A stretch of DNA of 64,000 nucleotides from the NCBI RefSeq assembly GCF_003334355.1, contig NZ_QOWP01000001.1. One strand, 5' to 3'. Shown piece by piece: positions 28,038-28,117 of this stretch; within the stretch, counting starts at the first letter, position 1; every line of letters starts with the position of its first letter. The DNA is from Escherichia coli. Its GTDB lineage: Bacteria; Pseudomonadota; Gammaproteobacteria; Enterobacterales; Enterobacteriaceae. The notes under the pieces were generated by a model, which was not told where the DNA came from, ran no database searches, and saw only the letters and a list, made by a program, of their open reading frames with translations. The position numbers and the translations under genes are program-made.

Positions 28038-28117
28038 GGCCGGATAAGGCGTTCACGCCGCATCCGGCAATCGTGCACAATGCCTGATGCGACGCTGCCG
28101 CGTCTTATCAGGCCTAC
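28038..28117. repeat. REP/BIME element (two REP units)
   Basis: ggccggataaggcgttcacgccgcatccggc (28038-28068) and gcctgatgcgacgctgccgcgtcttatcaggcctac (28082-28117), classic E. coli REP palindromes. Confidence 0.6.

Follow-up and report, generated by a model that had tools for sequence, protein, structure and literature searches.

The question raised by this stretch of the E. coli chromosome is whether the GC-rich palindromes between two pairs of convergent genes are anything other than a common enterobacterial repeat, and what part they may play where they lie. The window (the whole stretch analysed, 64,000 nucleotides) has its counterpart at ~3.119-3.176 Mb of K-12 MG1655 (3.12-3.18 Mb rounded), and the surroundings of both elements match thousands of complete E. 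coli chromosomes, identically or nearly so. Element 1 (28035-28118) lies in the 122 bp that separate yghU from hybG, and element 2 (39015-39112) in the 158-bp gap between yghA and exbD (Table 1). The original prediction described REP/BIME elements downstream of yghU and yghA; these gene names hold, and the elements lie equally downstream of the convergent hybG and exbD. The RefSeq feature table of K-12 lists no repeat_region features. We consider it very probable that both features belong to the REP (palindromic unit) family in a BIME arrangement, with roles inferred to be of the family type.

Table 1. Genes, repeat units, linkers and terminator of the two convergent intergenic regions, in window coordinates.
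Feature	Position	Strand	Remarks
yghU	27141..28007	+	stop 28005-28007, 31 nt ahead of the Y stem of element 1
Y-type REP (element 1)	28035..28069	-	minus strand reads TGCCGGATGCGGCGTGAACGCCTTATCCGGCCTGG; 2 mismatches to Y consensus
S-type head-to-head linker, short (element 1)	28070..28081	.	ATCGTGCACAAT, between Y and Z2; aligns to the Rfam naRNA4 linker
Z2-type REP (element 1)	28082..28118	+	CCTAC foot intact, GC/TT stem mismatch; 1 mismatch to Z2 consensus
hybG	28130..28378	-	last gene of the hyb (hydrogenase-2) operon; stop 28130-28132
yghA	38079..38963	+	stop 38961-38963
exbBD intrinsic terminator	38960..38997	-	12-bp stem then T7; hairpin -20.5 kcal/mol
Decayed Y-type REP, Y' (element 2)	39015..39047	+	ACCTGATGTGGCGAAAACGCCTTATCCG-CCTAC; foot kept (39044-39047), stem weak
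L-type tail-to-tail linker, 36 nt (element 2)	39048..39083	.	IHF-like core ATTCAACATGTTG at 39060-39072
Z1-type REP (element 2)	39084..39112	-	minus strand reads GCCTGATGCGCTACGCTCATCAGGCCTAC; 1 mismatch to Z1 consensus; 96.6% over 29 nt
exbD	39122..39547	-	stop 39122-39124

Membership of the family is carried by several lines of comparison. The check that had been proposed together with the prediction was made with the consensus of Y, of Z2 and of Z1: each matched the window once, and none matched in 100 dinucleotide-preserving shuffles. These consensus sequences equal the queries of Durrant 2024 (PMC11208160) except for one Y loop base. When the three published REP queries themselves were used in blastn-short, exactly these four units were found in 64 kb. 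Rfam has a single family for elements of this type, RF02564 (naRNA4), which models the 77-nt Y-l-Z2 unit of REP325. It matched 28038..28114 over model positions 1-77 of 77 (E = 4e-16), with 92.6 bits on the plus and 60.1 bits on the minus strand against a gathering score of 59.5, and this match is a database-level call of one BIME-2 unit. Element 2 gave no Rfam match at E <= 1. Across 5,426 complete E. coli genomes, megablast placed the 83 bp of element 1 at a median of at least 38 sites per genome, a count to be read as a lower bound (at least 40 pieces were returned in 2,814 records), and another 44 REP-unit matches, the six-unit REP325 array among them, were seen in 150 kb of other K-12 sequence. 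Both loci thus combine an extragenic position with a high copy number.

The individual units conform to the family to different degrees. An imperfect palindrome of 30-40 nt is formed by Y, Z2 and Z1 and in part by Y', and the GTAG/CTAC foot is present on Z2, Z1 and Y' and missing from the Y unit of element 1. The REP strings predicted for the first pair are present as written (gccggataaggcgttcacgccgcatccggc at 28039-28068 and gcctgatgcgacgctgccgcgtcttatcaggcctac at 28082-28117), and the predicted coordinates are accurate to within 1-2 bases, the second pair occupying 39015-39047 and 39084-39112. Their assignment as a common enterobacterial repeat is borne out by consensus matches with 1-2 mismatches, by Rfam and by copy number alike. 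The description of the palindromes as 'canonical' applies fully to Z2 and Z1 and fails for the Y unit without its GTAG foot and for the decayed Y'. The second site, predicted to carry a related pair, does carry a pair of REPs, which we refine to a different class, BIME-1 type as opposed to the BIME-2 type of element 1.

Other features of the window were recorded alongside. A perfect 13-bp hairpin at 781-807, GAAGCCGGATGAT...ATCATCCGGCTTC followed by TTTATTGATTT, lies just 3' of glcA (K-12 ~3,119,56x) and looks like a terminator, possibly a two-way one. It was rejected as a Y/Z unit: it shares GCCGGATG with REPs but has neither the CTAC foot nor the stem mismatch. A lone REP-like hairpin at 51948-51977, GCCGGATGACGACTTAACGTTTCATCCGGC, of -17 to -18 kcal/mol, is flanked by the stop of parC and the start of plsC (K-12 ~3,163,644-3,163,673); it did not score as Y, Z1 or Z2 against the published queries. 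Positions 11366-19753 (~8.4 kb) have no K-12 counterpart; at the same point of K-12 an IS5 (insH9, 3,130,146-3,131,340) splits yghO, and the strain of the window apparently keeps genes at 11366-19753 that K-12 has lost.

Element 1 consists of an inverted Y unit, a linker of 12-13 nt and a Z2 unit, arranged head to head. Relative to the published REP queries its units show 1-3 differences, the Y unit matching its query at 97% over 33 nt and the Z2 unit at 97.3% over 37 nt. Each forms a hairpin of -21 kcal/mol, and the inverted repeats of both are imperfect, with 14-nt arms at 86%. The Z2 unit has its CTAC/GTAG foot at 28114-28117, placing the GTAG 12 nt and the stem 16 nt from the hybG stop. 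The hairpin of the Y unit is intact and holds the GC/TT stem mismatch, an internal mismatch of 2 nt as in Z2, but its foot is CCTGG and not CCTAC; positions 28035-28038 read CCAG on the plus strand, and the unit has no GTAG. RNA of the yghU-hybG gap folds below shuffled controls (z = -4.0 and -3.7), and in the predicted minus-strand fold the two inverted REPs pair with each other as one long hairpin. Open reading frames of 46 aa (plus strand) and 55 aa (minus strand) that cross the element were discarded as coding candidates, since they run through the repeat.

A BIME-2 joins z2 and y units by a short linker and is usually repeated in tandem, and chimeric arrangements are called 'atypical' (PMC3333891). 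Element 1 has z2 and y units in inverse orientation with a short linker; the tandem, multi-copy feature, which is typical of the class but no strict requirement, is absent, a single unit being found in the window and in K-12. It has in common with BIME-2 and with REP325 the types of its two units and their inverse orientation, a 12-nt linker placed head to head, the mismatch in the stem, an extragenic site at 3' ends and the full-length Rfam match. It differs from both in being a single unit rather than a tandem array (six units in REP325), from BIME-2 in a Y unit whose GTAG/CTAC foot was removed by a deletion of 10 bp that B2 alleles do not have, and from REP325 in a linker sequence that departs at several positions. 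By its unit types and geometry, element 1 is a single-unit BIME-2-type pair.

In element 2 a decayed Y unit and an inverted Z1 unit stand tail to tail, separated by a 36-nt linker of the L type. The Z1 unit begins 9 nt past the exbD stop and has its GTAG/CTAC foot at 39084-39087; its stem mismatch is of 1 nt only (GATGAGC in place of GATAAGC), its hairpin reaches ~-16 kcal/mol, and its inverted repeat is imperfect, with 11-nt arms at 91%. The Y' unit matches the Y query at 92% over 24 nt and has ~10/34 mismatches in an ungapped comparison. A 1-nt deletion and several substitutions separate it from an intact Y, its hairpin amounts to ~-9 kcal/mol as against ~-21 in an intact Y, and it can still be aligned to intact Y units from other BIME-1 loci. 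RNA of the yghA-exbD gap also folds below shuffled controls (z = -3.5 and -2.2). The intrinsic terminator of exbBD lies past the BIME, overlapping the yghA stop codon, and element 2 therefore belongs to the exbBD 3' UTR.

Ton-Hoang et al. 2012 (PMC3333891) define a BIME-1 as a single-copy pair of a z1 and a y unit, between which lies a long, conserved L linker, often with an IHF site in it. Element 2 has z1 and y units, a single copy and a long L linker, and resembles the BIME-1 (RIP/RIB, IHF-binding) class in its tail-to-tail Y/Z1 order, its 36-nt linker and its single copy in the window. It departs from the class in its decayed Y partner and in the one mismatch of its IHF core, and K-12 and most strains have two tandem units at yghA-exbD. 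The core ATTCAACATGTTG differs from the IHF consensus WATCAANNNNTTR at that one position, and 66 such sites occur in the window versus 54 expected; as the bare motif is not above chance, IHF binding at element 2 would follow from class membership only. A linker core A(A/G)ATTCAAYATRTTGCAATA is common to element 2 and the glmS-pstS BIME-1 of E. albertii, and at K-12 melB-yjdF the Y-to-Z1 geometry recurs, with the core in a looser form. In this geometry comparison, a small sample drawn from 150 kb of K-12 and E. albertii, the linkers at melB-yjdF and E. albertii glmS-pstS measure 34-36 nt.

The element 2 linker alone, searched by blastn, had no other close copy in E. coli, only its own locus. 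A scan with the pattern TATTGCAAYATRTTGAATYT over one genome per species gave 26 stretches, of which E. albertii glmS-pstS was the sole BIME-1; the other 25, all from unrelated taxa, were judged chance matches. The scan gave no yghA-exbD locus from E. coli, even though K-12 fits the pattern; the pattern is over-strict, and we presume that the E. coli genome in the scanned collection has an empty yghA-exbD site. The E. albertii NBRC 107761 locus is a clean BIME-1 (Y, 34-nt L linker, Z1; 2385-2495 of its stretch). In the K-12 stretch containing glmS-pstS, blastn-short with the REP queries detected no paired Y/Z1 BIME-1 anywhere. By these comparisons the L linker of element 2 is conserved in its core only, and the composition and order of its parts are those by which element 2 is one BIME-1-type unit.

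Both loci vary among strains, as is known for BIMEs (PMC3333891). The shares given here come from 60-row samples evenly spaced down a ranking of 5,426 genomes, and the fractions are rough. At yghA-exbD, zero, one or two units are found depending on the strain. Two tandem units, 113 bp longer than the window allele, form the K-12 type (38/60), and an empty site in which the terminator follows straight after the exbD stop is found in 17/60, with UTI89, 536, Nissle 1917 and ST131 as B2 examples. The one-unit allele of the window and a divergent allele of one unit whose Y is intact (RMDEC465) occurred once each in the 60, and three rows were partial matches, one of which was inspected (KFu021) and has an IS621 in Z1. 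The window allele is present in all 60 best-ranked records and two units have appeared by rank ~92, which puts the one-unit allele in ~60-92 genomes. The two 113-bp tandem units of K-12 are joined by a 13-nt short linker, attgagcacctaa, and are an 'atypical BIME' under the published definition (PMC3333891). The single unit of the window is a recombinant of the two, its left part coming from K-12 unit 1 and its right part from K-12 unit 2.

At yghU-hybG at least five alleles were distinguished. The allele shared by the window and K-12 accounts for 36/59 chromosomal rows, alleles with a restored GTAG (+10 or +19 bp) for 5/59, a solitary Y-like REP with different flanks for 9/59 (~15%) and matches broken at the Z2 foot for 7/59; the remaining two rows are HH45 and CUVET20-PYO4, the latter matching on the hybG side only. 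At least one REP hairpin is kept between the convergent genes in every allele sampled. Ten extra bases, ACCAATGTAG, at the window 28037/28038 junction bring back the GTAG of the Y unit in B2-type NU14 and in AVS0747; the window and K-12 allele is thus a 10-bp deletion that removed the foot. On the bottom strand the deletion reads GGCC/TACATTGGTC/TGG (slashes mark its ends). Both ends fall at C/T, one of them being the published iREP-II cut within CTAC. Cutting and rejoining by TnpA-REP would fit this footprint, which we offer as an idea only, and slippage at a 2-bp microhomology explains it equally well.

The less common alleles also give a view of how the pair may have been assembled. In AVS0747 the linker and Z2 are bracketed by a 9-bp direct repeat, GCATCCGGC (AVS0747 stretch 330-392), and alleles of the THO-003 type have one Y-like REP with an unalignable left flank (THO-003 stretch 250-322). 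Allele comparison suggests that Z2 was inserted into an older solitary Y REP, a stepwise build-up of the BIME. As B2 genomes are without the exbD BIME and ~15% of the sample has a lone Y-like REP at yghU-hybG, neither element is required.

A further source of variation is the insertion sequence IS621, an IS110-family element with a bridge-RNA recombinase, for which PMC11208160 gives the natural target sequence. This target, ATCAGGCCTAC, is exact in both intact units (28107-28117, plus strand, and 39084-39094, minus strand); the window has no other perfect site, and both are empty in it but occupied in other strains. In O104:H4 2009EL-2050, IS621 sits at the CT core (ATCAGGC/CT/AC) of Z2 at yghU-hybG, and in strain KFu021 at the CT core of Z1 beside exbD. 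The yghU-hybG match stops at the CT of the Z2 foot in 7/59 sampled chromosomes, with IS621 confirmed in the one inspected, again O104:H4 2009EL-2050. Possession of a ATCAGGCCTAC site is a trait of REP feet generally and is not special to these loci, and yghU-hybG and yghA-exbD are both natural landing sites of IS621. In HH45 the same CT (window 28115) is the position of a 143-bp near-pure C/G run (cccccccctcgcccc..., HH45 stretch ~358-500), probably an assembly or polishing artefact.

Functional statements on the two loci are transferred from other REPs, and we infer them by analogy; a search of supplements of PMC12306157, PMC3333891 and PMC6379681 found no locus-specific data on hybG, yghU, exbD or yghA. 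Some 60% of REPs are located between convergent genes, REP-bearing convergent pairs are more highly expressed, and REP325, built of Y-Z2 units, is a partly Rho-dependent terminator and a stabiliser of mRNA (bioRxiv 10.64898/2026.03.23.713779). The same study found REP effects to be context dependent, and terminal REPs did not lengthen mRNA half-life on average. By analogy, the GC-rich stem-loops at the 3' ends of the yghU, hybOABCDEFG and exbBD mRNAs may impede 3'-to-5' exonucleases, and may also attenuate read-through, partly via Rho. The yghU-hybG gap of 122 bp was found to contain no terminator-like and no promoter-like site, and element 1 is therefore the only strong structure between yghU and hyb; it would act as a 3'-end-forming element for yghU and hyb, in both directions. 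According to Liang 2015, in the form in which PMC12306157 cites that work, a gene is translated less when a REP follows its stop codon at a distance of fewer than 16 nt. The Z1 unit, 9 nt past the exbD stop and within that limit as cited (<=15 nt), could thus be a translational brake on ExbD. At the level of DNA, by analogy with their classes, gyrase may act preferentially on the BIME-2 and IHF may bind the linker of the BIME-1.

The units themselves were presumably dispersed and remodelled by TnpA-REP/RAYT, the Y1 transposase associated with REPs, an enzyme dependent on the GTAG foot and the stem mismatch. We take the tnpA-REP transposase copy of K-12 (yafM) to map far from the yghU-exbD region. 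The parallels with REPIN/RAYT systems are the two inverted REPs able to pair as one hairpin (element 1, in the predicted minus-strand fold) and the GTAG foot with stem mismatch on Z2, Z1 and Y'; the difference is that each pair here has one defective unit. Binding and cleavage by TnpA-REP need GTAG and the stem mismatch (PMC3333891), and with the Y unit of element 1 lacking GTAG and that of element 2 decayed, one strand of each element is an unlikely transposase substrate.

Several other explanations could be advanced for the same palindromes. GC-rich hairpins at the 3' ends of genes are what ordinary Rho-independent terminators look like, and chance palindromes outside any repeat family might also be proposed. 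However, none of the four REP hairpins has a T-run after it or is called as a Rho-independent terminator, and the terminator that exbBD does possess is a separate hairpin (38967-38997). In sequence the hairpins match a repeat family of which each genome has dozens of copies, and the consensus searches, genome copy number and Rfam match refute this explanation, to which we assign practically no weight. The RF02564 match of element 1, full length and above the gathering score on both strands, could in turn be taken to mark a dedicated naRNA4-type sRNA gene, the transcript of which would bind HU, bridge cruciforms and compact the nucleoid; HU binding and nucleoid condensation have been reported for the Y-l-Z2 RNA of REP325 (Qian 2015, PMC4550694). 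The RF02564 model nevertheless represents a generic BIME-2 unit, and any Y-linker-Z2 pair matches it. Moreover, a later study with two authors in common with Qian 2015, Adhya being one of them, found no measurable chromosome compaction by REP325 and no long-range REP-REP contacts (bioRxiv 10.64898/2026.03.23.713779). With no promoter-like site in the yghU-hybG gap, and element 1 being a single unit within a 3' UTR, an sRNA gene is very unlikely.

The remaining explanations concern what the repeats do, if anything, and not what they are. Their main role may lie in the DNA, with the BIME-2 being a strong, transcription-independent gyrase site at which supercoiling between the convergent units is relieved, and the BIME-1 an IHF-bent site. 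Gyrase cleavage is over-represented in BIME-2s, chiefly in the y units, is independent of transcription and rises under rifampicin (PMC6379681); IHF sites are frequent in the L linkers of BIME-1s (PMC3333891), and an IHF-like core is common to yghA-exbD and E. albertii glmS-pstS, and looser at melB-yjdF. Against this, the cleaved BIME-2s are only a subset and mostly multi-copy, a search of supplements of the gyrase study (PMC6379681) found no data on the single-unit yghU-hybG locus, and the IHF core, with its one mismatch, does not rise above chance, so that a mainly DNA-level role, while possible, appears rather unlikely to us. The elements might also be selfish or neutral passengers of a REPIN-like kind, spread by RAYT and recombination, with no selected function here and any effects on RNA incidental. 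Polymorphism in presence and copy number at both loci agrees with this, as do the decay of one Y unit and the loss of GTAG from the other, the missing exbD BIME in the B2 genomes inspected or named (UTI89, 536, Nissle 1917, ST131) and the direct repeat of AVS0747, which is what insertion predicts. Yet a REP hairpin is retained in every sampled yghU-hybG allele, and the family is strongly biased towards 3' ends and has demonstrated effects on RNA. A passenger origin is also compatible with 3'-end roles of the family type rather than exclusive of them, and as an explanation standing by itself we regard it as doubtful. REPs in a BIME arrangement, acting if at all in the manner of their family, are thus the reading that we retain.

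Nothing at these loci departs from known REP/BIME biology, and the elements are ordinary copies of a well-known repeat. Beyond the original prediction, the analysis assigns each element to a class, places both in their transcripts, shows that two of the four units are defective, and surveys alleles and IS621. The result is mainly a negative one: the palindromes call for masking as known repeats, and are not to be taken for riboswitches, sRNAs, terminators or new mobile elements, and because the Rfam naRNA4 model matches any Y-linker-Z2 unit, its matches are repeat calls and not gene calls. It is conceivable, though we think it improbable, that the allelic series are non-coding expression variants that tune ExbD and Hyb/YghU among lineages, with the 10-bp deletion as an in vivo footprint of TnpA-REP. 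In such a scheme, zero, one or two BIME-1 units starting 9 nt past the exbD stop may affect TonB energisation, and at yghU-hybG the variants that may matter are the single Y REP, the Y-Z2 pair with or without GTAG and the pair disrupted by IS621. For the study of REP effects in 3' UTRs, both loci are a handy natural allele series, offering zero, one or two units, GTAG present or absent, and IS621 present or absent.
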